The translations under genes and the position numbers were made by a program. Below are positions 1 to 64,000 of a stretch of DNA of 64,000 nt, in pieces. The notes under the pieces are model-generated. The model ran no database searches. It saw only the letters and a program-made list of their open reading frames with translations, and was not told the DNA's origin. Positions within the stretch are counted from its first letter, which is position 1; every line of letters begins with the position of its first letter. The DNA comes from Haplodiscus bocki (Eukaryota), in NCBI GenBank assembly GCA_965655095.1, contig OZ296648.1:118730001-118794000 (forward strand), given 5' to 3'.

Positions 1-675
1 ATGCAGACAAAGTGGCTAAATAGAACAATGGTGTTAAATACCTTCTTGTCACTCTTGATGTATTATCACGAAAACTCAGCCAATGCGAACTAAGGGTGCG
101 GACGAAACTGCTAAAACTTTTGGTCGCTTGATCACCAAAACTAAGCCATTGAAAGTATGGTCTGATGAAGGAAGCGAGTTCAAAGCTTTCAGAAAGTTCT
201 ATGAAAGCGAAGGCATTGGCATCTACACCACAAACAGTAAAGCGAAATCGGCATTTGCAGAGCGCAATTTTCGATGTGTCATAACATCATCTACAAACCT
301 TTGGAGCATAAATGGTCTTATCGCTACATAAACGAATTGCAGTCTTCCGTTAGCACAATCAATTCTCGAATCAATCGCGTAACATCATTGGCACCGAACA
401 AGGTCTCGGCGGAGCATGTAACAATCTTGGTTTCACGAACAGCTCAACAGTCGAGTAAACTGGTCAGAAAACCAAACTTGAAACCAGGAGACGTAGTTCC
501 AATAGCGAAGGATGATATAACGTTCAAAAAACGGTTCAAACAACATTTCACTGACGAAGCCTTCCAGATTACCAAACTTGCAACCTTCAACCGACCAACT
601 TGTATGCTGGTTCATTCTAAAAGAGAAAACATTCAGGGGATGTCTTACGAGCCAGAGTTGACAGAAACTCGGTAG
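1..675 (+). pseudogene. Retroviral-like (rve, c-integrase) DDE integrase of Maverick 1
   Basis: Fragments NNGVKYLLVTLDVLSRK, KVWSDEGSEFK, KSAFAERN, YINELQSSVSTINSR and LKPGDVVPIAKDDITFKKRFKQHFTDEAFQI match the Polinton integrase core and C-terminus; frameshifted. Confidence 0.92.
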
Positions 676-677
676 AA

Positions 678-1535
678 ATGGATTAGTTTGACATATATTT
701 AGAGTCAACCGGTTCAATGCGAAATTGTCGACAAAACTAAATGGCATGCTTTCGCAACGTGCTCGCAGAACCTTTACAACTAGGCGGAGATTATAGAGTG
801 GCTTTGGCAGAAATAATTTTCCTTACAAGTGTCAAGAATGTTACCACCAGAGTACTTCGTATAGTTACCGAAAACTCCTTTCCATAATTCACCATCAACT
901 GGCAATACAAGCTCAGGAGGCGTAATGTTGAAACGTGAAGATTGATCAAACAATGCAACTTTTCCTGATGGTGACTACAAAACTGTCAAGGCTGTTGTCA
1001 CGCGCTTACATGTTGCGGTTGCTAAGAGCACGAGGCCCATTGTTACTTCTGGCACTGAAGAAAACTGTGTGGATTTCAACTTTGCAGATGATTATGGAAT
1101 AAGTCTTGGTGACAGAAGTCCGTTCGGTGTATTAGGGTTCAAGGGAGTGCCGGAGCCCAACCGAGGTGGGCGTTTCATTGGTAACACTGACAAAGTGAAG
1201 AAGCAAACACAACCAATGAAGGGCGATTATCCGGCAGATATTACAGCAGGAACCAGCATTTTCTTCGTTAACTGTAATATCATCGAATGCCAGCAAATAG
1301 CTGGATTTAAAGCACCTGTTCTCCGTCTCCTTGATACAGAAAAACGCCTAACAAACCGTAACCTACAAATCAAGTCTGCAACGAAACATAAGTCGTTTCT
1401 AGAAATGCAGTTTTGAAAAGCTATTTTTGGACACAATCAGGGAGATATTTATTCAATTAGTTGGTGTCTGGAGACTACTTCCCATTTGTTGGAACCGGTC
1501 GTGTTGCTATAACATTGAAATTCCGCAAGCTCTAA
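678..1535 (+). pseudogene. Minor capsid protein (penton) of Maverick 1
   Basis: N-terminal MD*FDIYLESTGS...FRNVLAEPLQLGGDYRVALAEIIF and C-terminal YPADITAGTSIFFVNCNIIECQQIAGFKAPVLRLL...LPFVGTGRVAITLKFRK are typical of Polinton pentons; position is directly after the integrase. Confidence 0.85.
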
Positions 1536-1537
1536 AA

Positions 1538-1911
1538 ATGCAGTATTACTATTCCCGGCAAGCTGTCTCGCCTGAATTTTCGGGCCACACGAGAGAGGAA
1601 GCGGTTTAGGATCCTTAGCCGCCGTAGTTGGACTTTTAGCGTTACCTTTTGCAAAAAAAGTTCTATCAGCTGTCAAATCAATAAGGAAGGAATACTTTGT
1701 TCAAAGTTTGCCAGAATTGATGGATGTTGCCACCAAAAAAAGTCTCCCAAACAAACAGCAAAAATCAGCTGTCAAAAGAACAGTGAAAAAGCAAATCGGA
1801 GGAGGTGCAGTTGTCAAAAAGAGTACACATGTAAAAGGAAACCGTCGACGAAAAAAGAAGCTACAGAGAAATCGGTCAAATTTCTTTTCACGATTAAAAA
1901 ATATTACATAA
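1538..1911 (+). pseudogene. Small basic Maverick protein (putative core/virion protein)
   Basis: Starts MQYYYSRQ, then (frameshift) RGSGLGSLAAVVG..LPFAKKVL and a K/R-rich tail with QIGGG; located between penton and major capsid as in other Polintons. Confidence 0.65.
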
Positions 1912-3192
1912 TATTTTACCTGTTGAAGCATCACACGTATCATTTGATATTTTTGAGCGTCCCCATCTTTTGATTACCTTCAATACATCATTGGAGCAGA
2001 AAATTGGTCCAGTAAATGATCCAAATAGACCAACAATGAAGTTCCAAGTGGTGGAGATCGAACCAATTTCATCGATCTACAGAACATCTATCTCGAATTG
2101 AAATGTGGGATTCTTTGACCTAATGGTTACATACGATGCAAATAATGCTGCGGCAATTGATTCACCATTCTTTGTTAATAATTCTCTATATTCTCTTGAC
2201 TGTGAGTGTAGTATTACTGCGAATGGCATCAAAGTCTCTGCTAATAGCTATTACGCTCGAAAGGCTTTCATTGAAAAAGAATTTTCACACAACGAAGAAC
2301 CGAAAGATACTTGGTTGAATTGTCGGATTTTGCTATGAAGAGCAGCATGCTGACTTTACTAAAAACATTTTTCACTACAAGGACAGCTGAAACGTGGTGT
2401 CCGCAGAGGTCTCTTCCAGTGGAAGAATTGCGTCGGACTTTTTCTGATGTGACAAACACCTGATAAGTTGAGTTCCACTGAGAATTTCGTTCCCCAGAGA
2501 TCGACTTGACTATGCAATAATTGTTACGATGATGAAAAAAATTAAAATCGAGATTATACCAGTCAGTTTGTACGTTCGAAAAATGTCAGTAGGTGACAAC
2601 GTTTACTCAGCTATTGAGACTATAGTAACTAAAACATCTCCTCTTTACCGTTATATTGAGATCATACTCAAAACGATTCTCAATTGCACAGGGGTGCTGA
2701 GTTGAGGTCACGAAGATGTATTCACCAGGGAGTCCATTCCATGGTTTGCAATAGCTATGACAACAAACAAGGCCTTTCTGGGAGCCAAACGCGGATATCT
2801 TTTCCTTTTCGAGAATCTCAATCTGAACAGCCTTGCAATTTATCGTATTTGTTATCCTGTTGCCTGAACTCCACTCCAAGCAAAGAGTGATAAGAAACTC
2901 TACCTTGATTCACTCGAAGCTCTAGGTTTCGGAAAGATGGTCATGGAGTTCCTTATAGCGACTATGCTGATCACTGTATTTCAGTTTTCGACCTAACTAG
3001 CACACAACAAGCATCCCATGATTATCTTTACCCACAACTTACAAATAGTTCCCTTTCTATTAGCTTAAAGCTTTCAGGACAACTAACAAACAGTGTAGAA
3101 GTAAGTGAACGGTCTTCTACTATTTACATTGACTCTTGTCGAAGTTTTCCAGGAATATCTTCTTGAACACAAAGCTTGAAACCAAGCGTTGA
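1905..3192 (+). pseudogene. Major capsid protein (double jelly-roll, hexon-like) of Maverick 1
   Basis: ASHVSFDIF...FQVVGDRTNFIDLQNIYLEL, FVNNSLYSL..ECSITANG, YARKAFIEKEFSH, SLYVRKM, VFDLTSTQQASHDYLYP, ERSSTIYID motifs across frames. Confidence 0.88.
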
Positions 3193-3690
3193 TGGATAGT
3201 ACCACAATTTTACAACAGATTACGAGTTATAGCTACTTGAGACATAGATTCGTGGGGGTATTCTCTGCAGATACATTTCCTATACCGCAACGAGAACACT
3301 TTCATTTTTGTGAACTCCGAAATTTCTGATGAGGAAAGAAAGCATTGGCTCTTAACATGTAACAAAGGCGGAATCTACCTTTTCGTTGACCCGTTGGGCT
3401 TACGTCTGAATGCGTTAACCAACAAGCGCCTAACCTATGCAGATTTCAGTTGTGAAGAACTAATTCAAAAACCTCTCCAACCGTCTTCATCGAACTTATG
3501 TGGACTTTATTGTACATACATTGCTCATTATGTTTTCAGTGGTTACTACCCTGTAATGCCGCTAATCGATGATGAACGCTATTCAAGATTTATAAAAATT
3601 TTAAAGTTTATTTTTATGTTCGCTCCCGTTGAATTTACGAAGTTTTCAATATCTTTTTTTTTCAATAGTTTTCAATATCTTTGCTTTTGA
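3192..3690 (+). pseudogene. Adenain-like cysteine protease of Maverick 1
   Basis: FVGVFSAD, VNS...KHW...LFVDPLG...LQPSSSNLCGLYC: His/Asp/Gln/Cys arrangement of Polinton/adenovirus-type proteases; one frameshift near 3300. Confidence 0.9.
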
Positions 3691-5956: not shown

Positions 5957-8317
5957 AATATATTTTGTTTGATGAAAACATTCATGATTGTCTTCTACAT
6001 TTTCTGATATTCCACAGAAATTTTTTATATATATATTTTTTAATTCCCCAGCGTGACTATTTTCCAATTTGAGGATTAATAGTGTAAAAGCAGTCAGTCT
6101 TAGTCCTCCGCTAAAACAAAAAAATGCAAGCACTCAGGCGTAATTTACAATAAGCGGATGGCAGTTAAATCAGCATAAACACTTCAAATAAATCGTTCGT
6201 ATGAAGCTGGTCATAGAAGAGTAGCAAAAGTGGCCATCAAAAAACAAAAACCATCAGTAAATGTTGTCGTTCGAACAAATAAGAACGAGAGGTATTTGTT
6301 TTGCCATCAAGATGAAAGACGCTATCATAAACATTCAGAACTTCTTCAATAGTTACGCATTTGATGACATGACCTACTACCCTCTAGCGTAAGTCAACAA
6401 AACGGACGATTGTAAACAAAAGGGGAAACAAAAGGTTTTTCAATTTCAGTTCAGTAAGCTCAGCAGCGCAAAAAAAAATGATAAACTGTGATATTGGCAG
6501 CAGAACTTCTAACAAGCGAAACTTATTTCGGCATCTCCGCAATTTTCATTACATTCAAAGGTCGAAGTCAGAGCAGAGAAATTACATGGAATGTCTTTTC
6601 AAAAGTTCCCCTTTCACAGTGGTGAAAAAACACGTTGAAGAAATCATAATACATGAAGCGGATACTGCATTTTTTGCAAGAGTCTCTTCTGTGATACAAA
6701 AACTTTCAATAAACACTTTCAAGAATTTACTTCGTTGTCTCCAGTTACACGAAGCCAAATTTCGTAACGCAAACTACCTCAAGCTTCTGCTTTCGGTGGT
6801 ACAGTGCAGACCTACTTCTTGGAAGCGGACGACGATTAAGATTTCCTACAGTTCATGGTAAACCGGAAGCAATTTTTTTGAGATTGTAGAGGAAGCAGTT
6901 CAAGCAGAACCGAAAAAAGTGCAGCTATCAGCGAAAGTCAAATTGGAAGAACCCGCCTTTGAAGATGAAGACACCACTGATCTCACGATTCACGTGATTC
7001 TCATAATGGAAACAGTCTACTTGGGTGAGACTCACAGAGGAAGCTTTTTTCACTATGTTGGTCAATTATTATCGAGTCTGTTCAGTTTTACTTCCCATGT
7101 AAGTTGGTGCGTGCTGAAAGAGATCAATGGTCTTTACGTAAAACTCGTTTCCCACATGCCAATGCGAGGGTCATCCTACCTTGCACTGCCAAGTGACTTT
7201 CAATGTTTGAATCGCCTGTTCAACGTAAGGAATCGGGATGATAACAATTGCTTCCTTTATTGTTACGTGGTAGCGTGGCAATTAGTTTATGCTCAGAGTC
7301 TGAATGAAAATGTGGGTCGGCGAATGAGAACAAACCCAGAAACGTATTCTCCTTCTAATGGATTGTCACATGAACCAGTTGGTGATTTCGAAATGCAGAT
7401 GGCTTTCAACCAAATTCCAAGGTTTGAAAGCCTGAACAATTTTCGAGTACCATATTGCGTTGTCAAAGGAAAGATCTCATTCCACTGCGATTATCGAAAC
7501 GACAGGAATTACCATTCATCTTAGACCTTCTTCTTCTTAGCGATGGTCAAGCGTACCATTATGTTTTGATCAAAAATTTTATTCAGCGATTTGAACCAAC
7601 AAGTTCCACGATCCAGTATCAAAAAATGCCTTGATTGCTTTCATATTTGCTACAAAGCTGAAATTTACGAACGGCATGTTCAGACTTGCATGCTAAACGA
7701 AGCAGCCACTATAAAACTACCAGACGAAACGAAAAACGACCTACAATTTCAAAATAACCAGTCCAGGTAGTTCGCACCTTTTGTTATGTATTTTGACTTC
7801 GGGTTGCTTATCAAACCTGTAGGAACATGTTCCAACACTTCTGATAAATTCAAACAAGTTTATAGAGAGACAATAACCTTGTGGAATATGCTTCGTTGTT
7901 ATCGAGCACAACAATCCTGAACCTGTCTTTTTCAAAATGGAAAGATTTTGTATTTATATGCAAAGTTCTGTTGAAAACTTGCGAAAGCATTTATGAAATG
8001 AAGCGGCTACATCGAAAGTACAAAGGATGACCTCAGTTTCGTTCCGATCAGTGCTAGTTTTGTGAAAAAGAGAATTAGCTGAAGGCGACAGAGTTTTTGA
8101 TCACTGTCATGCCGGCGGAAAGTTCTTGGTTTTCGGACACAGTGAATGCAACCTTAAATGGGGCACAGTAAACTACATTCCGATATTCGCTCTTAATCTT
8201 TCGAATTATGATTTAAATTTTATTTGCAAAAATCAACACCTTTCCCAGAAAAAAGTAAAATACAAGTTATTCATAGAATCGATGAAAAATACTTTTGGCC
8301 TTCGATTGGTATTAAAG

Positions 8318-8763
8318 TTGTGTCTTATACCGACAGTGGAGGCGTTGGAAAACATGTCTCTGAATATTTGTTTCGTCGGTTTTTATAGATTTATGGTTTC
8401 ATCTCTGGACAAACTGGTGATTTAGTTACTTGCAGAGAACTTCAGTTGATTGGATAACCACTTTCCTCAACATTGTTCTGAAGACTTGCATCAAAAGGGA
8501 TTTTATCCCTACTATTCTTTCGATTCGCAAGAGAAATTCATTGTGCCTTATACCGACAGTGGAGGCGTTGAAAAACATGTCTCTGATTATTTGTTTTTTC
8601 GGTTTTTATAGATATATGCTTTCATCTCTGGACAAACTGGTGATTTAGTTACTTGCAGAGAACTTCAGTTGATTGGATAACCACTTTCCTCAACATTGTT
8701 CCGAAGACTTGCATCAAAAGGGATTTTATCCCTACTATTCTTTCGATTCGCAAGAGAAATTCA
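8318..8763 (+). repeat. Tandem duplication, 2 x 223 bp, inside PolB
   Basis: 8318-8540 and 8541-8763 are colinear with about 8 mismatches; paired ORFs both end SSLDKLVI*. Confidence 0.95.
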
Positions 8764-9910
8764 AGAAAAATCCTTGCCCAGTGTAAAAAAATGGACGAAC
8801 TCCCTCCAAGATGGTCAGGTGTCATTTAGTCCAGAGTATTTTCAACATGCAACAAAAGTTTCGCAAAAGTTGGGGTGCGAAACTCTCGATGATTACCACG
8901 ATCTTTTCCTAACAACGGACACTTTGCTACTTGCATGTGTGGAGGAGCAATTTCGAAAAGTTGCTTACTCTACTTACGGATTGGATAGTGCTCACTATTA
9001 CACGTGTTCTGATCTTTCGGGCGATGCTTTCCTAAAAGTTAGTGAGGCAAGAGTGGAATTGCTCACAGACCGTAGTCATTTGGAGATGGCTGAGAACTTG
9101 ATCAGACGGGGCGTCTCCTCAGTGTTTTCAAAGCGCTTGGCTACAATGAACAACAAATACCTGGAATGATTTGACGAGACAAAACCAACAACATATGGTC
9201 TCCTCTTGAATGCAAATAACCTTTATGGTGGAAATATTCAAAAATTTCCACTTCCTTTGAGTGAGTTTGAGATCGTGGATGTTGAACTCAGCTCAATTCT
9301 ATTGACTGCGAATGACTCAGGAATTGGCTTCGTGTTAGAAGTCGATTTGGACTATCCTGATGACCTTCACACTAAGCGCGAAGACTTTGCACTGGCTCCA
9401 ACCAAGGATAAAATTGATCGGATTATGCTGTCCAAGTATCAGATGGGCCCATTGGACCAGGCAGGCATTAGATGCTTGTACAGACTTTATTCGCGAAGAA
9501 AAATTACACGTTTCATTACCTTCTACGTGGATCTCGGTCTCAAAGTTAGTAAAGTACATCGAGTCCTTCAATTCAAACAGAAGCGGCTGGAGCCGTACGT
9601 CAACTTGAACACCAGAATGCAAATCGAGTCAAAGAACAAGTTCGAAGAGTCATTTTGTAAGCTGATGGACATTATTTCTGTGGAAAAACTTCCAAAGAAG
9701 CGAAACGGGGTCAACGTGACACTAATGAAAACAAGAGAAGCTGTCCTTGATAACTCCAACAAAGGTTTGATGAAATCAATCAATATATTCGATGAAAGCC
9801 TGGTAGCAATTACAAGAAGTAGAGGACAAATTTACTGGAATACGCCAACACTCGTGGCCGCTTGAATATTCGATCCCGCCAAGTTCCATTTGTATGATTT
9901 CCATTACAAG

Positions 9911-10086
9911 GTAAGCATAACATAACAAAATCGGGACCTCTAAAACGAAGTGACCGGTCTATTTTGCACATATATAGTTTGAATCGAATATCCTTAGGTG
10001 TCCAAACGAAATGACAAAAACGTTCGGAAGCCGACGGTAGGGTTTTCAAAAGGGTCTCATTTGAATAAAAATTCTTTTGTTTTCAG
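9911..10086 (+). other. Spliceosomal GT-AG intron (176 nt, phase 0) in Maverick PolB
   Basis: AAG|GTAAGC donor and TTCTTTTGTTTTCAG|GTA acceptor; removal restores the frame and the conserved KFHLYDFHYK-VMKKTFDCSLLFSDTDS segment. Confidence 0.85.
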
Positions 10087-11129
10087 GTAATGAAGAAGAC
10101 GTTCGACTGCTCGCTTTTGTTTTCAGACACTGATTCGCTATTCTATGAGATCAGAAGACAGAATTGCTATGAGAAAATAGCGAACAACCCCATGTTACAA
10201 AACGATTTCGATTGTCCTAATTTTCCAGTTGCCAACCTTCTTCATTGTGACACGAACAAGATGAACACACTCAAAGATGAGATGGCAGAGAAAGTCTTCC
10301 AAGAATTCGTTGGTATCGAAACCAAGATGTACCCAATAGCTAATGAGAACCAGCAAAAGATGTCGGCAACAGGCGTATCTCGATTCGCTGAAACTTCACT
10401 GAAACTTGATGTATACCAGCGTGTTCTGCTAAGTGGTCACCACATGAGATCTAAAGATTTCGCTCTTCAGAACATCTCCTTCAAACCATTTGAAACAAGA
10501 AAATATCATTGAATGCTTTTGATTACAAGCGTTCCTTAGAGAACGATTGCATTCATTGTCTTCCTTTCGGCCACTTCATAATAAGAGACTGGCAAGTGCG
10601 TAGAGCAATCCTTGAGATGATGACTGTGGAGATAAAGAGCGACAAGAAACCCCAGAAAGTAGTCCAACTGAAAGAAGCAACCATCAAGTTGAAACGCATG
10701 TCTGCCGAGAGATATTCACCCTTCCTGACCCTGGCATGCGTCAATGAGTTTACTCGGAAATTGAACTTGAAGAAGTCATTGACCTCGATGAAGAAACAAC
10801 ATCATTTTCAACTCCTAGACAAAGAAACCCTTTGTTTAACGACGGAGCCGAAATAGATTCCTTTAGGGACTTTGATTCAGACTACGAGGATGTAACAATC
10901 TTTTCTAGTATCTCAAATGACCTTTCACTGCCCAGATCCCCCGCTCTTTTTGATGCTCCCCAGCCCAAGAAAAGAGTTGTGTTAGTTTCAAGTGATATCG
11001 AATAAATATTGATGGTAGAAAAGAATTCGCGCAAAGTACTATGCAAACGTTTCATTCATAAACGTTGAACAAAATCTTGAGGCCTTTTCACGTAGATAAT
11101 ATTTCCCCACCCCCTGGAACTGAGCCTTT

Positions 11130-11690
11130 AAAGAAAGCCTCTGCAAAAGTGATAAAAAAAATAGCCCCTGCCAAAGAGCGCACGAAAAAAGCGCCTGAGA
11201 AGGCGCACGGAAAAAACTCTCGCGAAAAAGCGCCCGGAAAAAGCCCCGCGAAAGAACGCACGGAGAAAGCCCCTCGCAGAAGAGCACACGGAAAACAACC
11301 CCGCGATAAAGCGCACTGAAAAAACGACGGAAAAATCCCCCGCAAAAGAGTGCACAGAAAAAGCCGCCGCGAAAGATCGCACAGAGAAAGCCCCCGCGAA
11401 AGAGCGCATGGAAAAAGACTCTGCAGAAGAGCGCAAGGAAAAAGCCGCTTCGAAAGAGCGCACGTCGAAAGCCCCCGCGAAAGAGCGCTTGGAAAAAGCT
11501 CTGGTGAATTAGCGCACGGAAAAGCCGCTGCGAACGAGAGCACGCTAGAAGCCCTTGCAAAAGAGCGCACGGAAAAAGCCCTCGCGAAAGAGCGCACGGA
11601 AAAAGCTCCCGCGAAAGAGCACACGAAAAATGCACCCGCGAAATAGCGCACCAAAGAAACCCACGCTAAAGAGCGCATAGAAAAAGCTGT
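11130..11690 (+). repeat. 27-bp minisatellite (~20 copies), consensus GCGAAAGAGCGCACGGAAAAAGCCCCC
   Basis: Directly visible periodicity; one frame reads AKERTEKAP repeats; explains the cluster of overlapping ORFs on both strands. Confidence 0.92.
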
Positions 11691-12454
11691 TCACGGTCAC
11701 GGACTCTTTCGAATCACCATTGGGTAACAACATGAGAAAAACTGAAAGCCTGCTCTGGACCTATCTTAATCTACCGACACTTTGAGGAGAAGGTTCGAAG
11801 AAAAAACAATGGAAAAGTTCAGGCCTTACACAGCACCTTTCGAGTCATTGCCTGTACAAGATCCCCAGGTTAATACCGGTATACTGTGCGGTTCCGGAAA
11901 CACCACAAGGGTGACTTTTGGTAGCAAAGACCTGCCTTTTTTTCGTAAGCGTACCGACGCACCTAAAAAGAAGTTGATAATTACGTGGCACTAATTCTTG
12001 ACAGCAATCTTATAATTATCGTCAAAAAAATATTAAAAGAGAGCTGGCCTTTGTTCAAAGCTTTGGTAAAAGTCCAAGCTGTTCATTGCTTGCTAAAGCG
12101 TTGCATGGGGGCCATTAGATCCTCGAAGTTCACTTAGTCGAACCTTAATATAAGATCTTCTCTATTTCGCTCAACGTTTGCTCCCTCTGGAATGGACAAT
12201 TTTCAGTCTTTGGTTAGTCACGACCTCAAAATATATTGAGTTTTAGGTTCTGCTTTATAGAAAATTTGAAGATGTTTCAATCTTGGCAGTTTTTTTCATG
12301 TGTTGAATGCGCTATCTTTTAGTAAAAACAAACGGTATATACTTCATTTGCTTCGATAATAAAATAACAGCCGCCAGACAGAAACACGAAACAAAAATTA
12401 ATGCAAAGTTCACAACGAAACACCAGCCTTTAGACAAAGTGAGTTCAAAAGCGA

Positions 12455-13230
12455 CTAACTTCAAGTTTTTGCAGAGCTTTGTACAGTGCACAAGTTTAAT
12501 GAAGACCGTTTGTGGTCTCCCTGAACATTTAGAACGCAGTCCTTGATTCCTGATAACTTGAAAACATTTTTAGCCAGGGGCGGTCCTTCCGTACCAATTC
12601 CTTGGGGCGAAGGATTGATGAAGACTTTGATGTGTCCACATCTTCCTCTGATCCTGAACGGAGCAGTACTGATATTTTTGTATCCCCAGCTACCCCTCGC
12701 CAAGCGGAATTTTTTCAGAAAGGCTACAATAGTTGGACTGCTTACAGCCTGCGCTTGTGTCTTCCGGGTTTAATGACTCATGCCGATCAGTCCCTCCTCA
12801 GCTCTGACTGCCACAATGGCTTGGTATCCTACTCGCGGTCTTCCATTACCAGTCACGCTGCACTGCTAGTGTCTTCAGAATATCTTCGCGGTAACCTGCA
12901 AACAATGAAGAATCAATAGAACGGAAGTTCGTCATAAGGAGCGCCTCCATTCCATGCCGCTCTTATATTTGGGGTGGGGAGCAGCATTTTGTCGCAAGGT
13001 GCTTATGGTATATGAAACTTGTGTTTTTTTTTCAACCATCATCAGTAACCGTAACCTTGGGATCTCTATGGCTGCATAAAACTATACTTCAACATGGCTT
13101 CACAATCCCATTATTCTATATGCCCTCAAAATTAAACCTCTTATTAGTTGAAGGCAAAAGTTTAACTTACCCAGCATTCTTTTTTTCTGGAGATAACTGA
13201 AATCGATTCTTGATTTTTCTGCTTTCTGGA
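12455..13230 (-). pseudogene. Divergent ribosomal protein uS5 (RPS2)-like gene, copy 1, with a putative intron at 12896-13170
   Basis: Minus strand: YREDILKTLAVQ/VTGNGRPRVGYQAIVAVRAEEGLIGMSH*TRKTQAQAVSSPTIVAFLKKFRLARGSWGYKNISTAPFRIRGRCGHIKVFINPSPQGIGTEGPPLAKNVFKLSGIKDC aligns by eye with eukaryotic uS5 (DEVLKIMPVQK..RFKAFVAIGD..G..G...VRRGYWG...TVPCKVTGRCG....PAPRGTG......AGI.DC). G|GTAAGT donor at 13170 and TTGCAG acceptor at 12896. Confidence 0.75.
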
Positions 13231-16200
13231 ACTATTGGCAGTAGTTGTAGTGATGAGTAGTTGTATTTGAACTGCTTGATTTTTTGTCTGAGTCTTCCTC
13301 CACTGATAATCCATTGTTCTGAGTAGCTAGATTTGACGTTTAAATTATTTAAAAGTTAGGTTAGAAGTGCTGGCAATAGTGTGTACATATCGACTTCAAA
13401 GAAGAAGCGCATTCCAATAGAGTGAGATTAGCAGAAACGGTGATGGACGCTTGTTCTTCGCTTAGGTCGATTAGTGATCAAACTTGAAATGCCAGCAGTC
13501 TAGCCTTGGCTACATGTATATATTGTTCACGAGCCAAGATTCCACCGCGAAGTACGTTTTGGTTTAGGGATTCTTCCACAGAAAGGTTGAAATGATCTTA
13601 GGATTGACCGCGAGAAATCTTGTGAATCCCTATACTACTCGTACCACTTACTTAATTGAGCTAAAACTTAAACGATTTCCTTAAATTTTGCTAAGGTCGC
13701 CCGACTTGTCGCTTTTGAGCCTACCTTTTCCAATTGTTTGCTCAGAGTTCCACGAAACGAATACCAAACTATACTATCGCATTTTTAAGGAACAATTTGT
13801 AAATTGTCGTGTATTTAGTGTACAAAATAGCTGACTTTAGAACGTGTGCTCGTTTGGTTCAAGAATAATTGTTTGTTAGCATACAAGAATAAATGGCAAA
13901 CATTGCGAGGATTTTTTCTGAACTTTGAGAATCGTTGAAATTGGACCGCGTTCAAGTGTCTCAACGTAGTCCAAACGTTGCTATTCTCCTGATTTTCCCG
14001 AAGTTTTTGGATTTTTAAATTCTATTTCAACTTTTTAGCTGCGTTTTTGAACCAGTACAATACAGAAACCAAATTACTGGTGACTACCGTTTATTTCCGC
14101 TACAGTACTCCTTGTAACTTTTTCATTAGCCTAAAGGATGTATTTTGACGCCACAAGTTATGCTGAAAGTACCAAATATCGCATTCTTCCTTTATCCTCC
14201 GTTTGCCTTTCACTTACTTTTCGACAAGTTCGGCAAATCAATAGAGAACGGAAGCAAAAATGTAGCGCGCTACAGCAGGAAGTTCCAATTTTGTTGAGTT
14301 TTGGTTTTCGGTGCGTTTGTTCGATATAGATATTTTGTTCGACTTTTGCCGTAGTTCCGGTCTCCCGCCTTCTTTTTCTGCTTTTTGGCTATACTTACAA
14401 TAAAAGCATTATGAGAGGACATATTTTGCACCTTTCCAGAAAAGCTTCAACTTTTTCGCTATGAATGGTCGATTTTATTGGTTTTTGATAATAAATTTAG
14501 CAGGTTTTGCAATTTTTCCTTTTGCCTTCCCAATTAGGTACGCCTCAACCGAAATCAAATAGAAATTGCTTATTTTGAGAAGTTGCTGGCACTTAAAATT
14601 GTATCCGATAGTGTGAAATCGCAGTTGCTACTGCTCTAAGCAAATTTGTTAAATTCAGTTTTTACACCACATTTGTTTCCGACCAAACAGAGCATCTTCG
14701 CTCACCAGGGTGCTGTTGTTTTGTGTGCTGTTGAACGAAAAACTAAAACCTTTATATGTACGAGATGCACATTTTTCATAAATACATTTTTTTTGCTGTT
14801 TTTGAAAGAAAATTGGAAATGAAAGTCTGTCAAATTTCAACTGACGAATGAGTATCAATTCATTTGGTTAGTTTAGGAAAATTCGCAATGTTCTGACAAG
14901 CCTTTTTCCGGTAATGATCGATCGTGCTGCTACGAGTTCTCGAAATACTGAAGGAATTTGAGTGGCTAGCTTTGTGTAGGCCCGCTTCACCTCTTTGTGA
15001 GCGAATGAACCCGAGTATATCAGTATGTACTTCTTAACGTATTTATCAAACCCTCACTTTCGGATAAACTTACTAAACTTACAAATTTTTTCATGCTTTG
15101 TTCGGCTGCTCACTTCCACATCCCTCACTCAATTGTGCTTCTAAAAATCCTACCTGATTGTTAAAAGTTGAATTATTCCAATTGAGTGGAAGAATTCCCC
15201 AATGAAGGTCATTTTCACTAGCAAAAATTGCTTTACTTGCTCGCTTTACTTGTTTTGTTGGGTAACTATAAAGGGGATAAACCAGTTAGCGGGAATTTAA
15301 AATTCAATAGCGTCTTGTTGGTTCGGGGTTTCGCCCAATTTACATTACTAGACCGGGGTTGGGGCCTCGTGCCGAGACCTTTAGTGACACATACAAAACT
15401 GTAGTCAGTCAGCATGATCTCTTGAACCTCTTGATTCGGCTAAATTTTGCATGTGACCCTGAATCGATGACACAAGCAACTCAGCCTGCTGGCATTTTGG
15501 CTAAAGATTCGTTCTTTCATTGAGAATTTTGAATTATTGTACCTGATTTTATTATTTTTTCGAAAAAACTTTGATTTACAGTCAAAAATCTCTGGAATGA
15601 ATTGTTTTTGACGGTCGGTCATGAAGTGAGCTGGAAACCTGTGTTCCGTGGCCGTCCCGTTGCAAGAAATTTGATTGTCTCATTTTATGAAAAAGATATC
15701 TCATTTCGACTTTTTCGAAAATTTTCACCGGAGAAGTTTCGGCAATAAGATTACAAAAGCTCAATTATCTCTTGAATTTTCCGTCCTAAGTTTAATTGAG
15801 CGTTAAGAAGTGAAGCACATAGTCTTTTCGGCTGCTTTTTGTCAGAAAAATTTTGACGATTTTTTTTCAGTGATAAGTTTGATCACTTTTGCCAAAATGT
15901 TGGGGCAATTAACTTTTCCAATTAAAAATTTTCCAAGTATTTTTTGAAGGCAACACAAGTTGTTTTCGGGAATTCATTTTTCAGCTTTGGTTTTTTCCCG
16001 AAATCGCGTCCGTCAAAAGCCTAAAGAAGTAGGTCCCACTCGCTCTTCAGCTCAATTGAAGCCATCTGTAATTTTTTTCCTTTTTTTCGTGCTCTTTCTC
16101 AATTTTTTCAGTCTAATTCTGGAGTATGCTATACATTTCATTTGCATTCTTGTTCGGTTTTATTTCAACGCAATAAAAGGTTCTGGTGCCATTTGTATGT

Positions 16201-22300: not shown

Positions 22301-25300
22301 GTGAGTTGAGTTTGAACGTATCAATATTCACGGCTTCTATCTGCAAGTTTTCTGTTTTCGATGTCTCACTGAATGATGTTTTAGAAACGGCGTTTTGAGA
22401 CAGTCTATTTCTACATGCGAAGTCTGGCAGCCCAGGAAGATTTCAAAGGTAATTATTATTGTATCATCACTGCATTGTCTGTAATGGATAAATTTGAGCG
22501 GTAAAACATATTGGCGAAATAATTCGCAAAGCGCTTTTATTATTATGCGATTTTGACCATTTTCCAAAAAAGATCACTTTACTTAGCATTGCCACATACT
22601 TCAAGGTCTATCGTTGGACATTGAAATATACTGGGTGTACGACTGATTATTGAAGTTTTACTATGGAACCAAAAAAGGGGCAGAATTTCGGTATCAAGTT
22701 AAATTTTTATGACTTCAAAATAAAGCAATTGAAACCACTGAATTGATCCTTTGTTGTAGAAATAGTAACAAGCCAATTTTTTATTACAAATTCTGACTGG
22801 AAGGAAGGATGTGAATTGGAACCGGCTTATCTCCAGTTTTTTATCCTGTCCAAAACTTGCATTTCTTGACGTCATCAGATAGTCGTGTTCTTGTGAAAAC
22901 AGTCGAAAATGAACATTTTGAGACATTTGACAGGTATTTGTTTACTTTAACGTTCTAAAATTTACTATTATGTTGTCACCTTGTTCTGAAAAAGTGAACA
23001 ACAGCGTCCTAAAAGATCATGTTTGACTGGGAATATTTTGAATACCGACAATGTGGCAGCCCTAGTTGAACTTGCATGAAAATTTTGCCTGTTGTATTAA
23101 TGCATGCTGGAATATTTTTTTCACAAAGCATAAAAAATTCAGGGATCTTGTGTGGAGAAATCGTACAAAATTTCCATGCAATATGCAGAATTTGCATGCA
23201 ACATATTAACAAAACATATCACTTCATTTTTTAGGCGAGCGGAGCGAAGCCTGTTAGCACAAGGACACGTCAAAATGATTTCGTTTTTTTTTCCCGTCCG
23301 TGACATCCCTCCGCGTTTCATCTCTTTACATCTTATTTTCTCGGCACCTTTTGGTCAGATTTATCCGATTTTTGTCTTAACACTACGATGGTTTCTCGAT
23401 TTAGCTTATTGCAAATTTTCGGTCGGCAGATTTTTTTCGGCGTGTTTTTAGCGATAAAAATTTCATTTTTCGGATTTTTTAGAGGGCAGAAGAGATATTT
23501 TTGAGTCTTGTCTGTACAGGAAACTTGGAAATGCTGAAGTTTTTGCATTAATCGATGAAGCACCATTCAGTTGAGACCAATTTTTTTCGGCCAGTTTTCG
23601 TCAAAAAACCGGAATTTTTTCGAAACAGATTTGACATTGCCCACTACGTTTCGTAACTTTGACGCTCATTTTCTACGAACGCATTTGTAGGATCCGTTTG
23701 CTTATTGCCAAGCTGTATTGGCAACTTCGTAATTGACCGGGTTCGAAATTTTTGGTGTACGAAACTTCTTCGCGAGCGAGTTTCTGGCGAAAGCAATTGA
23801 AAACCCAGGTTTTTTCAGAGGGCAAGTTATACTTTGTCGAACTTCCTTGGCCTATTATCCCATATATGGCTTCCCAATGCTGGTTAGGAGATGGAACATT
23901 ATGCGTAAGTTGCATTTAATTTCTAACCGAAAGTTTTCTTATTTTTCCACAAGATTTTGACCGAATTTTTCCGGAAGAAAATTGGTTTTTCAAGTTACTT
24001 CCTGCATTATCTCAAGTTTTGTGCGTTCAGCATGCCTCAAAGTTATGCCTATCACCTGAATTGAGGAATAGAATAAGCAATGTGTACAACAGTGGGTTTT
24101 GATGCAAGTTTGGGCTCCGAAAGTTTTCAAGAAATAAGATTCCTTCAAGACTTGTCGACTCTAGAGAGTTTTTATCCTGCTGTACAAACAATAAAAGTAT
24201 ACAGGGCTTCGTGATGCTCATTGCATTGACTGGAGAAGCAGTGGAGAGCTTGTCAGGGTACGCTCAGTCGTAGATAGGTGGTCTGGACAAGGTACTCTAG
24301 ATGTTGAACATTTAAAAAAAATTCCCTTTGCGATGATTTACTGCGACTCTCATCACCTGGAAAAATGTCTCGAGTGTCTCCTAATAACCCTCTGCATCTG
24401 CTCACTGCTTTTGTAACCTTTGGGCTGCGCGAAATTTTTTGGTCGAGCTTTCTGAGAACACCTATCGGGAAAACACGGCTTTTTGGATAGATTTTTATTT
24501 CCAGATTCGTATTTGTTCACTTAACGCCCTAGTTGTCAACGTCTGGAACCTTGCTGCTCTGAGATGGCTTTTGCCAAACAGCGGCTGGCTTTTGCTGACT
24601 TTGAGATGACAAAATATTCTGTTCCAGCTAAATTCTTTTAGAAGTTAGGTTAGTTATCTCAAACTGCTCTTATCTCGATTGGTTGGTGTCTGTCTAATCT
24701 CTCCGGATTTTGCTACATGCTCTATGGCATTCCATAGGCATGTGGCCAGCGGTGTAATCAAGAGTTTGAGTACCTTCACGAGCCTCGCGCTATGAGCACC
24801 TTAGCGCCTATGTTTTCAATACTCTACTTCACATCATCAAAGTAGCACTAGCTATTTGTGACCTCTCCACAAACTGTCAGAAGTAACAAAAACCATCGAA
24901 AGATTGTAATTATGGTCTATGATTACGGTCTCAATTTGGTAATACAAGTTTTGAGCCTGCAACATTTTATTCTCTTATTTTTTTCTGATAGTTTTGTTTT
25001 TCTGTCAAAACTTCGCTCAGAGATTGCTAAAATGTCCTATTTTGACCCAGAGAAACATATATCGCATATGAAACCTTTCAGTGGCACAATAGGAAATCCG
25101 TGAAATGAATAAATGATCACAATGAAAAAATTTTGATTGCACTTAATATTTAGAATTGTGGTTGAAATTTTTCTCATGCTACATGGAAACTTCTGTAGAA
25201 ATTCAAATTTGTCTGCTGCATTCAGATTTTGCATGTTGCACGGAAAAATTTTTGTACAAGTTCACTTGCAGCAGTGAAATTTTCATGCATAAAAAATTTT

Positions 25301-40300: not shown

Positions 40301-43300
40301 TTGCTATCCCAAAGATACAGATTTTTCTCAATATGTAGACACGATCTGCTTCAACCAGTCATTCCGAACAATACTCTGATCACTGCTCGACGAAAAAGGC
40401 TTGGTTTTCTTAGAATTGCTAAATCGACCAGATACAGCAAAATATCCAAGTCAAACGAAAATTCAAAATCTACAGCTACCTCTGTCAGGAAACATGTTTC
40501 TGCACCTATCCGCAAACACTTCCACCGTTGGCGACGGGACCGACCAATAACGCGCACACAAATATTTGCCTCGTTGAAGAGGAAGTGGTAGAATTTGCCA
40601 GTCATAATGTTTTCAACAAAGCCATCATCCAGTTGCGGCCCGAAGAATTCAGTTGCCTGAGAGAAAGTATCAACTCAGCCAACACTCTATTAAACTACAC
40701 TTCTAACTACATCAAAAATCATGTTCAATAACCGACTACAAGTTGTAATCCAGAAGCACAACATTCCGACAACAGGAATTTTGCTGATCAGACCCAACTC
40801 GATAGAATCGACGACTCGCGATTACCCAAACAGATTTCAAAAGATCTAGCAGGTCGACAAGTTGTTTTGAAAATAATCTATATCCCAGCCAGCCTCTTTG
40901 TTTAAAAGGAAAGAAGAATATTGCATTGAAATTAAATCTAGTAATGACTCTACTACCTATATTTTTTTACTTTATGCCAACAGTAAAGTTGAAAACCTTT
41001 TGTGAAATTACATTGTTGTTGTTGTCTGTGTTTGTTGTATAACTTTTCTGATATGAATTCTTGCTTTCCGAAATCGTTTTACCTTGAAATGGTGGAGCAT
41101 ACAGTTGACTCAGTAGACGGTTTACAAATTGAGGACATTGTTTTTCACAATAGTCAAAGTGAAAGAATGTCGTGGAAGTTGTGCATTTCCATCCCATCAC
41201 TAGCCTCAGAAGTTTTGTTCTTCATCCGAGCAATTCTTATTCTCAAGAAAGTATTTACGACTTTGCTAAAAAATGACACTAGATTCACCATCAATTGACG
41301 AAATAGCAGTTGGATTTTCTTTTTTATTCGGAGCAGTTGGCTATGTTTTGCCGAACCCCCAATTTGGAACAGAATAATTTTCACAAATGATCGTCTGTTC
41401 ATGTCCATGGTTGGCCCAAGTCGATCACGAAAAACCCGAATCATTTTTCTGATGCTTGCTTCACCGACAATATTTTATTCAGCCATTGAAAAAACGTATT
41501 ACTTTTAGAAGGATTATCAGCCTTTGTTCCAACAGCTGGCGGAAAAATTAAATACTGAATATTTGTCTTGTTTAGACTTTGAAATGATTGAAAACTGCTA
41601 GTTTGTCTGCTGGTATTCGACGACTTCTGCGAAGAAATTATCAGGGGGAAGAATTTGCTAACATTGCAACAGCGGGAAGGCATAAGAAAATTCATTGTAT
41701 CTTTGTCAAACATATTTTATTTCATCAAAGCAACTGGTGGCGCTCTTTCGACCTGAATACAACACACATTGTTTTGTTCAAGTCTGTTCGGTATATCCAA
41801 CAACTTGACGTGTTTGGAAGACAAATGAATCAAATAGAGCTTTTGCGAAATTGCTGCAAAAAGTCAACATCCGAACCTTACGGTTACCTTTTGATTGACT
41901 TTAATCCCCGAACTAGTGAATCTTTATGCTTATCTTCGAATACAGTTGGACCCTCACCCTCAATTTTCGATTTACCTTCGTCACTAGCCAAATAAACGCC
42001 CTTTACAATTGAACGCGAAAAAGTTGCATATGCTGAGGCGTTGGTAAGAAGGCATCAGGCGAAGGACTATCAAAAATTTTTGAATCAATGAGATGCTGGC
42101 ACAATTAATTTGCTTGGCGAATGTGCTCTAAATATATATAATGGTAGCATTCCCTTCGACGTGAATGAGTTATCAGCGTGCCTCGCGGTAATGAGTTATT
42201 CTGAATTTATTCGCATACGACCTTGATGAGATTTGGTCAATTGATTTAGCGTATGTTGACAAATTCGCTAATTTTAACAACCAAGTCAAGTATTTGTCAT
42301 TAGCGGTAGATGTTCTACCGCGTTACCTGAGAGTTTTCCCAATGCGTACAAAATCATCTCAAGAGAATGCAAAGACTTGCAAAAAATTGTTGGAAAAAAA
42401 ATACCCCAAAAAGTTTGGTCGGAAGAAGGTACAGATTTCAAAGTGGCTTTCCAGCAACTCTGAGAAAAAAGAAATACATACATAGACAACCGAGAGTGAA
42501 ACCAAGTCAGCATTTGCAGAGAGAAACATTCTGTCGCTCCAAAATATTTTCCAAGTTACGAGTACCTGGAGCATAAGTGGACTTACCACTGCATCAACAA
42601 GTTGCAGTCATTTGTTGGTACGGTCAATTCCCGCACCAATCGAGTAACACAATTGGATCCGAACAAAGTGACAAGGAAACACGTGCCGCATTTACGAGCA
42701 TTGGCAGTGGAAAATTCCAAAAATTGTCAAACAACCACTTTTTTAAGTCAGCGATGAAGTACGCATCGCAAAAGAAGATTCACTATTCGAGAAAGGTTAC
42801 AAGCAAAACTTTACAACTGAATTTTTTCAATCAAAGCGGTTCCAACTTCGAACCCGCCAGCATATAATTTGCAAGACAATACTGGAGGAAAAATCCAAGG
42901 AAATTTTTGTGAACTTGAGCTGGTTAATACAAATGGACGAGTTTGACATTTATCTGGAATCAACAGGTTTTTTGAATCTTTATCCCAACAACACACATGG
43001 CGATTTTTCACAATCTGCTAGCACACCCAATTCAACTCGAAGGTGATTGAGGTGTGGCTTTGATTGAAGTCCTTTCCCCAACCAGCAATAAAAACAATAT
43101 ATCAACCGTTGATTACACTGCAAACGTCCCTCAGAAAAAGGTTTCTGAAGCAAATTCCGGTGGATTTCAAGTATCTCGCGAAATTGGGAAAATATTGCAA
43201 CTTTGCCTTCTGGTGTCTACTGAAACGTGAACGCTTTGTTGATTTGTTGAAAATATTGCAAGAGGAAACCCGTTTCTCTAAACTTTTCGACTCGTTCACT

Positions 43301-46300
43301 CAGTAACAAAGAGTATGTAGCTCTGGTGTTAAATGATGACTTTGGAGTCAGCTTCAATGACTGCAGTTTTTTTGATGTCTTATAATTTAATGGTGTACCC
43401 GACAAGCATCGAAAAGGAGCCTATTTTTTGGAGTAATCATAGCGAATACGGTAAACAGACTCAACCAATCACAAATGATTAACCTCCAGATCTGACAGCG
43501 GGGACAGCATGTTTGTTGCAAACACCAACCTCATTGAACAAGAACATGTTGCGGGTGTGAACTCGCCATCACTGAGAATCATTGATACCCACAGAATACT
43601 GTCGAATGGTAAACTAGAAGTGACCTCTTCGGTTTCCATGTTCTTCATTCAGACACTGATTCGCTGCCATATGAAATGAGAGTTGCTGCCACTACATTGA
43701 TTCTTCGCCTATATTTTGACATTTCAAACTACCCAGAAAACCTTTATCTATACAATAGTGACAATAAAATGGTGACGCTGAATTTGGACTCGTCCCGATA
43801 GAATTTATTGGACTGCAGGCTAAACTCTTTTCGATACTGACCCATGAAAAGCAAATGATTTCCATTAAAAAAATTAGTTTGCGCAAAAAAATTTATTACA
43901 TGAAAAATACAAGGAAGTAACATTAACTGGTCAATCGTTCCGTACTATAAACACCAAAATCAGATCAAAGAAACACCAGTCGCACACAATACGTTACAAC
44001 AAGCTGTCACTCCCTACTTTGATGATGACGTTTTATTTTGATTGATGGTATTACTTGTCTTCCCTTCGGACATCATGGATATCGAGATGCTAACATCCAC
44101 CGTGAAATACTTGCTGATAGTGACTGCGGAGGAGATGGTTTACCATACAGCCCCACTTGGATTGAAATGAGGCAACCTTCCACCTGATCAATTAACAACT
44201 CCGAACTCTAATGCTGAAGAAGCAACCAGATTTTCGGACGAGAATTTGGATGAAATTATAGGTTAGACTTCACCGGACCCCTGATTTACTCAAAAAAGTT
44301 ACTGAGACTCAGTTGAATGATGAATTTTCACACTTTCATGCGGAAAGTGAAATAGAATCACCCCACTCGAGGAACACTTTAATCGATGATGAAGTTCAAG
44401 ATACTGATTGGGAAGCAGCAAGTGTCGTTCATCTTGGTTCGAGTGAGAGCGAAGACATACCCATCTACAGTGAAGATGATAAAAACTGGAGGACTTGGAA
44501 CGATATTTAGACTATGGCCATTCGAATGCCGATAAAGAAAGTTCAAACGAGAGATCGAGAATTGATTCGTCGACTACTGACAGCGAACTCAACAAGATTG
44601 TCCATGCTTGTGAGCTGTTATAATACTCTTAAGTTCATTTTTATTGTTCTTGAGCTGGTTCAAGTGGTTTAGTTGTTTTGTGAAAATATAACATTGGATG
44701 GAACTTCATTACCTGCTCCTCAGCCGATGAAAAGATTTTCAGATTTCGTCGTTTCTAGAGAAAGTTTGATCCTTTTACCAAGTTATGTTTGCCAACGGCG
44801 TGACTAAACAATCGAAGACTCCAAAGATGTAGGCATATACTAGTTACATTCGATCAATCTTTCCATACATAGATGCCTACAGTAAGCCAAAACAAGCTAA
44901 AACTAAAAATATCTTCTTATACTAGGTCTGATGATCACTCGTTATCAATATTGATGCCTCGAGTAAGCCAAAACAACCTAAGAGCCCAGATATGCCTGCC
45001 TATACTATGTACATTGCATAAATAGTTCAATATTTTGATGCCCATCATGAGCCAAAACAACCTAAATTTCCAAGTATGTATGCCTATGTTTGGTATATTG
45101 CCTCAATCTTTCACTATTTAGATGCCTATAGTGAGCCAAAACAATCTCACAGTGCAAAAGTATATGACTGTTCTAGGTATAATCCATCAATCGCTTACAA
45201 TATAGATGCCTATTGTAAGCCAAAACAACCTAAGAGCCCAAATATGTTTGCCTATCCTAGGTATATTGCGTCAATGTTTCAAAACATAGATGCCTATAAA
45301 AAGCCGAAACAACCTAAGAGTTCAAATCTGTTCGCCTATACTGTGTATTATCCGTGAATCTTTCAATATATAGGCACCTATAGTAGTCCAAATCAACCTA
45401 AGTGTCCAAATATGTATGCCTATATTAGGTATATTCCATCAATGTTTCACTATATGAATGCCTACAGTGGACTAAAACTATCCAAAAGTCCAAATAATCC
45501 TTGCTTTATAAAAATTTTTGTGCCAATCTTTCATTACATGAATGTCTACTTCTGAAAAATATTACAAGAGTTCAAATATTTCACCCCTGAAAAAGTAACT
45601 CCCTTGAATCTTTACAAATCACTGAACAAAATTCCACTGTACCGCGTTTTCTTTTAATAAGTTCATTGCTAGCTGGATGAAGGAGCGCGAGATCGGCGCG
45701 AGAAGCATGCCAGTTTTTTGCAACAGCTTTTGTTTTTTTTTCTCGGTGGCTCTTGTTTTGTACTGATGCCGTTGTTTTCGTGAGAAAAGCATCATTCGGG
45801 AACCTACTAAGACACTTGTCAGAGAAATATTTTGAGCAACTAGGAATACAATTGAACCTGTCAGGGGACTAAGAACACCAAAACCGCGACGACACCGCAA
45901 AGACGATCAAACAAACACACATTCTAATGTAAAGTTCCAGTTGCAAAGGCAATTTTGCAAGAGTTTCAGTTGCAAACTATTGATAAATACGAATTAGCTG
46001 AAACATACCAAAAGTCTCTCAACGCCTTTGATGGCAGCAAAGAGTGGAAAAGCTAAACTGAATGAATAGTCACTCATTGTTGATGGTGTTAGCGAGACAC
46101 AATCTTGAACTCCTGCTGATTTCAACACAACTTTGGTCAAGCACGAAGTTTGAAGACCTGTACGTCGCGCGGCGGGACATAGCTTGATTGTGAGGTCATC
46201 GTGACAACCATGCATTTCCTGTTCTAAAGTTTTGTTGGACCCTGGTATTACATCAAAACAGGCCACGTTAATTTCGATAATGTTCGTTTCTGCACTTGCG

Positions 46301-62906: not shown

Positions 62907-64000
62907 GCGCTCAGGTGCATAGCGCAAGGCTCGTGAAGGTACTCAAACTCTTGATTACATCGCTGACCACATGCTTATGGAATGCCATAGAGCATGTAGC
63001 AAAATCCGGAGAGATTAGACAGACACCAACCAATCGAGATAAGAGCAGTTTGAGATAACTAACCTAACTTCTAAAAGAATTTAGCTGGAACAGAATATTT
63101 TGTCATCTCAAAGTCAGCAAAAGCCAGCCGCTGTTTGGCAAAAGCCATCTCAGAGCAGCAAGGTTCCAGACGTTGACAACTAGGGCGTTAAGTGAACAAA
63201 TACGAATCTGGAAATAAAAATCTATCCAAAAAGCCGTGTTTTCCCGATAGGTGTTCTCAGAAAGCTCGACCAAAAAATTTCGCGCAGCCCAAAGGTTACA
63301 AAAGCAGTGAGCAGATGCAGAGGGTTATTAGGAGACACTCGAGACATTTTTCCAGGTGATGAGAGTCGCAGTAAATCATCGCAAAGGGAATTTTTTTTAA
63401 ATGTTCAACATCTAGAGTACCTTGTCCAGACCACCTATCTACGACTGAGCGTACCCTGACAAGCTCTCCACTGCTTCTCCAGTCAATGCAATGAGCATCA
63501 CGAAGCCCTGTATACTTTTATTGTTTGTACAGCAGGATAAAAACTCTCTAGAGTCGACAAGTCTTGAAGGAATCTTATTTCTTGAAAACTTTCGGAGCCC
63601 AAACTTGCATCAAAACCCACTGTTGTACACATTGCTTATTCTATTCCTCAATTCAGGTGATAGGCATAACTTTGAGGCATGCTGAACGCACAAAACTTGA
63701 GATAATGCAGGAAGTAACTTGAAAAACCAATTTTCTTCCGGAAAAATTCGGTCAAAATCTTGTGGAAAAATGAGAAAACTTTCGGTTAGAAATTAAATGC
63801 AACTTACGCATAATGTTCCATCTCCTAACCAGCATTGGGAAGCCATATATGGGATAATAGGCCAAGGAAATTCGACAAAGTATAACTTGCCCTCTGAAAA
63901 AACCTGGGTTTTCAATTGCTTTCGCCGGAAACTCGCTCGCGAAGAAGTTTCGTACACCAAAATTTTCGAACCCGGTCAATTACGAAGTTGCCAATACAGC
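62907..64000 (+). repeat. Near-identical inverted duplicate of 23712-24807 (runs off the window end)
   Basis: Base-by-base reverse-complement match in the segments checked. Confidence 0.97.

Follow-up and report, generated by a model that had tools for sequence, protein, structure and literature searches.

Vertebrate Mavericks, or Polintons, have (AGT)2//(ACT)2 ends, terminal inverted repeats (TIRs), a 6-bp target site duplication (TSD), and genes for pPolB, an integrase, an ATPase, a protease, and capsid proteins. In the accessible part of the work describing them, intact elements are defined by intronless open reading frames (ORFs), and no introns were seen in them (PMC8097293). Nematode Mavericks have a like core gene set and carry intron-bearing genes; according to the available portion of that report, the introns lie in captured cargo and the core is called intronless (bioRxiv 10.1101/2022.07.12.499685). 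The premise of the initial annotation of the locus treated here, that Polinton core genes are usually described as intronless, agrees with both sources as far as their accessible text goes. A large survey, in its available part, used a prokaryotic gene caller since endogenous viruses "do not contain introns" (PMC10120064). Spliceosomal-type introns do occur within the Polinton-like elements of dinoflagellate eupolintoviruses; according to the accessible text they belong to dispersed introner families, most were gained once the element had integrated, they are depleted in coding sequence, and the intactness of the elements is unclear (PMC12166617). Mirusviruses, which belong to another virus realm, have canonical GT-AG introns in core viral genes, taken as a sign of nuclear transcription; as the available part of that study has it, the introns are many, lie mostly in morphogenesis genes, and sometimes hold homing endonucleases, and the lineages rich in them have no PolB (PMC12768974).

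The Mavericks of Haplodiscus bocki described here resemble the vertebrate elements in their ends, duplications, and core genes, but have a GT-AG intron in pPolB, short TIRs (72-77 nt), and other accessory genes. Unlike in nematodes, the intron lies in the replicase. In contrast to eupolintovirus introners, no dispersed copies of it were found, it has become fixed across a clade, and selection on its exons has continued; in contrast to mirusviruses, the intron is single and short, contains no gene, and is located in PolB. Since introns are common in DNA transposons and nuclear DNA viruses generally, the surprise is limited. Nonetheless, a search of openly accessible papers found no description of a fixed spliceosomal intron in a Maverick pPolB. 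The accessible portions of PMC12220804, 10.1101/2023.08.22.554363, PMC8502044, PMC6431247, 10.64898/2026.10.13.758929, and PMC6451197 hold nothing relevant on introns.

The window, that is, the whole 64,000-nt stretch of DNA that was analyzed, begins inside one such element (Table 1). Judged by its TIRs, (AGT)2//(ACT)2 ends, 6-bp TSD, pPolB, integrase, ATPase, and protease, the element is a Maverick/Polinton. The window copy has both end motifs and its own 6-bp target duplication. Four young copies in the same genome are about 18.5 kb long, with AGTAGTA/TACTACT ends, TIRs of 72-77 nt, and four different 6-bp TSDs; two of the four are 99.6% identical. One young copy has open frames for the ATPase, integrase, likely minor capsid, major capsid, protease, and PolB. 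By sequence, this is a recently mobile Maverick clade with an inherited, fixed putative intron in its replicase. Copies with TIRs, 6-bp TSDs, and open exons carry the intron as well. With respect to an intronless core, pPolB is the departure, being interrupted in 30/30 copies; the other core ORFs are uninterrupted in the young copy examined.

Table 1. Features of the Maverick element and its polymerase gene, in window coordinates unless a locus is named
Feature	Position	Strand	Remarks
Left element end	L249:5662		4,339 nt before the window
rve integrase gene, 3' part	1..672	+	decayed
Likely minor capsid gene	678..1529	+	from position and size only; no profile match
Major capsid gene	1901..3189	+	decayed
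Adenain-type protease gene	3192..3603	+	decayed
pPolB exon 1: C2H2 fingers, endonuclease VII-like domain, Exo I-III, Pol A, Pol B	6478..9910	+	decayed here
Tandem duplication, 223 nt, in exon 1 of the window copy	8318-8763		
AGGTAA, 5' junction	9909..9914	+	sequence
Phase-0 GT-AG intron in the pPolB gene	9911..10086	+	176 nt here; 176-207 nt across the family
5' splice site GTAAGC, exon end AAG just before	9911..9916	+	sequence; +1 to +6 conserved
AATAAA inside the intron	10064..10069	+	sequence; candidate poly(A) signal, absent from part of the clade
T-rich tract and CAG acceptor	10067..10086	+	sequence
AGGTAA, 3' junction (acceptor AG, Val codon, A of Met)	10085..10090	+	sequence
pPolB exon 2: motif C (~10120-10137), KxY, TxxG-type motif, acidic tail	10087..11002	+	frame-shifted here
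27-bp minisatellite	11135..11715	.	within the element, after PolB
Ribosomal-protein-S5-like accessory gene	12470..12859	-	decayed
Right terminal inverted repeat, ends TACTACT	13568..13639	.	length taken from the young copies' 72-77 nt
6-bp target site duplication CGTACC	13640..13645	+	matched before the left end

Motif C and KxY were found only in exon 2. The Exo, Pol, motif C, and KxY motifs were located with sequence patterns. Motif names follow the accessible part of 10.1101/2023.08.22.554363. PF03175 was above the cut-off in proteins P0001-P0003 and had no match in the intronless relative P0009. A profile search placed zinc fingers and endonuclease VII among the best 60 of 84 matches. The rve integrase matched PF00665 (E 3e-9), and the packaging ATPase matched PF04665 Pox_A32 just below the cut-off (E 3e-4). 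The adenain-type protease had no Pfam match, its Atlas features reaching 0.97-0.98 to PF00770 clusters; the major capsid, a candidate double jelly-roll protein with weaker support than the protease, had an Atlas score of 0.98, with PF21738 on 30% of one cluster's members and recognition just under threshold. A Pfam search of 24 ORF fragments from the window gave no match, and neither did a PDB sequence search with exon 2.

The initial annotation had reported a 176-nt insert with a GTAAGC donor, a pyrimidine tract and CAG acceptor, a pair of AGGTAA motifs, and an AATAAA, all of which are present. The frame up to position 9910 reads ...KFHLYDFHYK and that from 10087 reads VMKK...FSDTDS, so the insert is in phase 0. 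The distance from the intron/exon-2 junction to SDTDS, 12 residues in the window copy, is equal in 22/22 close intronless relatives. The further remark that the insert is not a multiple of 3 holds for the window copy but not for the family, in which lengths of 3n, 3n+1, and 3n+2 occur in 12/30, 9/30, and 9/30 copies. Similarly, precise removal restores the frame around the junction, as proposed, but not further out: both exons of the window copy, like the neighboring genes, contain stops and frame changes, and because this copy is decayed, its reading frame fits only locally. It is 83% identical to the youngest copies.

The insert belongs to the whole family. A DNA search of the same genome gave 87 candidates, 40 of which were scored, and 30 loci were fetched; these copies are related, so counts of copies are not counts of independent events. 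All 30 carry the insert at the same place, beginning with GT in 26 and ending with AG in 28, and each of the donor positions +1 to +6 agrees with the young copy in 25-28 of 28. This recurrence, like the constant distance to SDTDS in the intronless relatives, goes beyond chance. Alignment of genomic copies, a check suggested in the initial annotation, thus finds a common insert with conserved splice sites, and its identification as a Maverick pPolB intron with spliceosomal marks is borne out. The intron is also present where both exons are open, in copies on C4, C6, and C12. Several other kinds of insert were rejected. An insertion unique to a dead copy is ruled out by its presence in 30/30 copies, an in-frame protein insertion or intein by the lack of any copy readable through in frame (0/30), and a group I or group II self-splicing intron found no Rfam match at E up to 1. 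In contigs from four runs of one study, whose kind is unrecorded, an exact skip of the young copy's intron was seen in 0 of the 15 joints listed, of 53, a count uninformative on splicing. Some contigs of one study are variants with an unlike intron interior between alike ends; their source may be the sample behind the present assembly.

Among 40 more distant stretches of the same genome, 10 have an insert at this site and 30 have none. These stretches include a second, older sister subfamily (24/25 loci mapped, 23 copies aligned), in which the insert measures about 130 nt, the donors, where legible, are of GTTAG type, and the acceptors read TAG|GTG. This subfamily is old and decayed, and GT is gone from many of its 23 copies. 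Its insert and the insert of about 200 nt show no significant similarity (p 0.09-0.46), so the two subfamilies may have gained theirs in parallel at one site. The spliced exon join (window 10085-10092) would itself resemble a donor, AAG followed by GTAATG, or GTGATG in the sister subfamily, and re-splicing at the joined exons is conceivable. The GT-AG ends, extended donor, and pyrimidine tract are those of a U2-type spliceosomal intron, and by eye, host chaperonin genes have like GT...AG signals, including GTAA- and GTTAG-type donors.

Both exons are under purifying selection while the intron drifts. This was assessed in 28 copies, L017 and L021 being excluded as tandem duplicates, with variants called shared when found in at least three copies. 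Shared variants, none of them a stop, give an omega-like ratio of 0.19 for exon 1 and 0.23 for exon 2, in contrast to singleton variants, whose ratios of 1.17 and 0.96 are those expected from decay after insertion (Fisher p 8e-22 and 6e-8 for exons 1 and 2). Per site, shared variants number 0.04-0.06 at codon position 2, 0.23-0.30 at position 3, 0.22-0.36 in the intron, and 0 at the last three bases of the acceptor. Shared gaps that are not multiples of 3 number six in 198 intron nt versus six in 1,440 exon nt, and the four listed for exon 1, all in old copies, may be alignment effects. Since shared variants and gaps show this constraint in the exons, exon 2 has been kept as coding sequence 3' of an untranslatable insert. 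Within the intron, a YTYAAT motif, a branch point candidate, is present in 19/28 copies, and a looser version in 8/23 sister copies.

Relatives outside this genome appear to have the same gene structure. Of 62 homologous database proteins, seven lose homology exactly at FH[YS]K, one belonging to the present family and six to outside families. They continue for 10-49 residues, beginning with Val-Ser (six) or Val-Gly (one), the read-through expected from a GTNAG or GTNGG donor. The ten best matches to exon 2 are ORFs in their own right, 336-360 aa long, which begin at the exon-2 Met or beside it. For the six outside families, the putative intron is thus placed by the ends and starts of predicted proteins rather than by DNA, and in two cases the pairing of exon 1 with exon 2 is through equally long source contigs only. 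Two outside exon-2 ORFs reach a best identity of only 62% and 71% in the present genome, and these two families therefore belong to other assemblies. In a maximum-likelihood tree of 58 rows and 480 exon-1 columns, 22/22 intron-bearing rows fall on one side of a branch with 100/100 support among intronless rows, and a FastTree analysis of 65 rows agrees with this grouping. Seven far outgroups were left out of the former, and L009 (fewer than 200 filled columns) out of the latter. P0025, which is long and 69% identical to a portion of exon 2 but has no junction region, was set aside. Protein identity within the intron-bearing clade goes down to about 64% (about 36% divergence), and a single gain for the whole clade is the simplest and likely reading. 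Exon 2 opens with Val-Met in 16/22 intronless relatives; the exon-2 Met is ancestral.

More distant material was also searched. No relative was found in IMG/VR. Metagenome relatives are distant (29-59% identity), 56-57 of 80 cover the junction in one piece, and none showed an insert at exactly this site. One distant metagenome pPolB of about 30% identity (L228, ~145-250) has a GT...AG insert of about 100 nt, placed four codons before this site and differing from it in phase; it is probably an independent intron.

Taken together, it is probable that the insert is a GT-AG intron common to a clade of Maverick polymerases. A single gain is likely, and so is removal by the host spliceosome, which would join motif C to the rest of the enzyme. 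The fit of the frames, the conservation of the sites, and the selection on the exons make it likely that host splicing is needed for active pPolB. The proposal of the initial annotation that the element depends on host splicing for PolB is accordingly the one best supported by a family-wide insert, conserved sites, a single clade, and selected exons. The element would be transcribed in the nucleus by host RNA polymerase II, the spliceosome would remove the single intron so that the motif C of exon 2 is joined to the rest, and the spliced RNA would be translated into one polymerase of about 1,430 aa. This polymerase would then copy the intron-bearing DNA by protein-primed synthesis, and each daughter would inherit the intron, since a DNA replicon goes through no reverse transcription that could purge it. 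Most likely the intron is a tolerated passenger and not required, as the genome also contains intronless Maverick families with PolB frames of more than 1,300 codons. It may have been gained by insertion at a proto-splice site of the AG|GT type, which would fit the data.

Regulated splicing of the third (last) intron is proven in the Drosophila P element, where retention truncates the key enzyme and limits replication in some cells. The Maverick intron is alike in being a last intron whose retention would truncate a key enzyme, but its regulation is hypothetical. It is unlikely that the intron is also a regulated gate, by which retention or internal polyadenylation would yield a product of about 1,100 aa that lacks motif C and the type or state of the host cell would limit replication. 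Retention would indeed end translation within 10-49 codons in 7/7 intron-bearing proteins, and the intron, the only one found in pPolB, precedes the catalytic aspartates and has been kept over about 36% protein divergence; in a DNA replicon, however, persistence requires no function, the donor is of a strong, common type, and the genome still holds intronless families whose frames are long and open. The polyadenylation hexamer is similarly two-sided. AATAAA or ATTAAA occurs within the last 45 nt of the intron in 23/28 copies, but near the acceptor in 0/23 copies of the sister subfamily, and 45% of composition-matched random sequences hold one of the two. AATAAA alone occurs in 9/30 copies, against 28% of such sequences, and is unremarkable; the hexamer lies about 20 nt before the acceptor, in the most variable part of the intron. 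That there are instead two genes, exon 2 being translated from its own Met (the second codon) and the insert being an intergenic spacer with a poly(A) signal, is very improbable. Gene callers do draw a separate ORF of 336-360 aa from the exon-2 Met in ten clusters, and selection on both parts would fit two genes equally well. Yet homology breaks off precisely at GT and picks up again precisely after AG, no residue being missing in comparison with 22/22 intronless relatives, the exon-2 Met is ancestral by its Val-Met context, the tails read through from exon 1 vary both in sequence and in length (10-49 aa), and both splice ends are conserved while the interior drifts. Still less credible, and almost certainly wrong, is a disabling insertion in non-autonomous copies replicated in trans by intronless polymerases. 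The genome does hold intronless families, and most copies are decayed; nevertheless, a disabling insertion is contradicted by the purifying selection that acted on the two exons in lineages none of which lacks the insert, frames are open on both sides of the insert in divergent families, and the intron-bearing rows form a single clade reaching 64% identity.

The origin of the insert is a separate matter, and it is rather unlikely that an introner-type mobile element or a tandem duplication of AGGT(AA) made it, with the repeat as a footprint. AGGTAA is present at both junctions in 20/30 copies, and duplication of AGGT is a described route of intron gain (accessible part of PMC3443670), as introners are documented in dinoflagellate eupolintoviruses (available portion of PMC12166617). 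The same part of PMC3443670, however, reports flanking repeats of at least 5 bp at 26% of conserved Drosophila introns, and the AGGTAA repeat is absent from the sister subfamily. The direct repeat noted in the initial annotation is therefore real but not diagnostic, and the caution given with it, that it overlaps the splice consensus, was sound: four of its six bases are splice consensus or Val codon, and the next residue is the ancestral Met. The repeat is largely explained because splice consensus and Val-Met codons supply it. The suggested search with the 176 nt uncovered no dispersed introner family, since all 40 scored matches in the genome lie inside PolB copies (33 by coordinates, 7 by sequence; 26 of the 66 candidates were unscored). 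Terminal inverted repeats were not found in four introns (p 0.11, 0.61, 0.14, and 0.035), nor was similarity of the intron to the flanking exons (p 0.11-0.82). These results speak against the introner origin proposed earlier. Folding z was +0.5 for the window intron and -2.0 for a young copy's intron. The gain is old, so introner traces may have been erased, and an introner origin is compatible with splicing.

A replicase intron that is probably spliced by the host has several implications. Screens that assume intronless core genes would score working elements as broken. The intron, going by its sequence, would support nuclear, spliceosome-dependent expression of Mavericks, and the clade provides one intron gain whose place is defined, next to sister lineages of this genome that lack the intron. 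If the intron were a gate after all, host cell state would decide when an endogenous virus copies itself.

Several observations concern Mavericks in this genome more generally. A first-look search with an 88-aa probe gave 8,548 PolB candidates, in many families down to about 40% identity; some families have open frames of more than 1,300 codons, including intronless ones. The closest named database match to the Maverick PolB of this genome is from an acoel (48% identity, partial). The S5-like accessory gene (L033:3266-3769 (-), L253:1399-1857 (-)) matches PF00333 and PF03719 above the cut-off, is open in a young copy, and is present in both intron-bearing subfamilies; no match to it was found in the flanks of one intronless copy. 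Near the left end, a 96-aa ORF (L031:6440-6730 (+)) is hydrophobic near its N terminus, contains an EGF-like domain that stays below the cut-off (Pfam E 0.004-0.006), and resembles viral growth factors. The 27-bp minisatellite varies widely in length among young copies (L033, L036, L041, L045) and is open in several frames. At window positions 41296-44160 there is a second Maverick, of another family and internally deleted, in which the ATPase, integrase, and a partial minor capsid gene are followed directly by the C-terminal part of PolB. Finally, window positions 23712-24794 and 62918-64000 are inverted copies, 99% identical over at least 1,083 nt and 38 kb apart, and are a young repeat of another kind.
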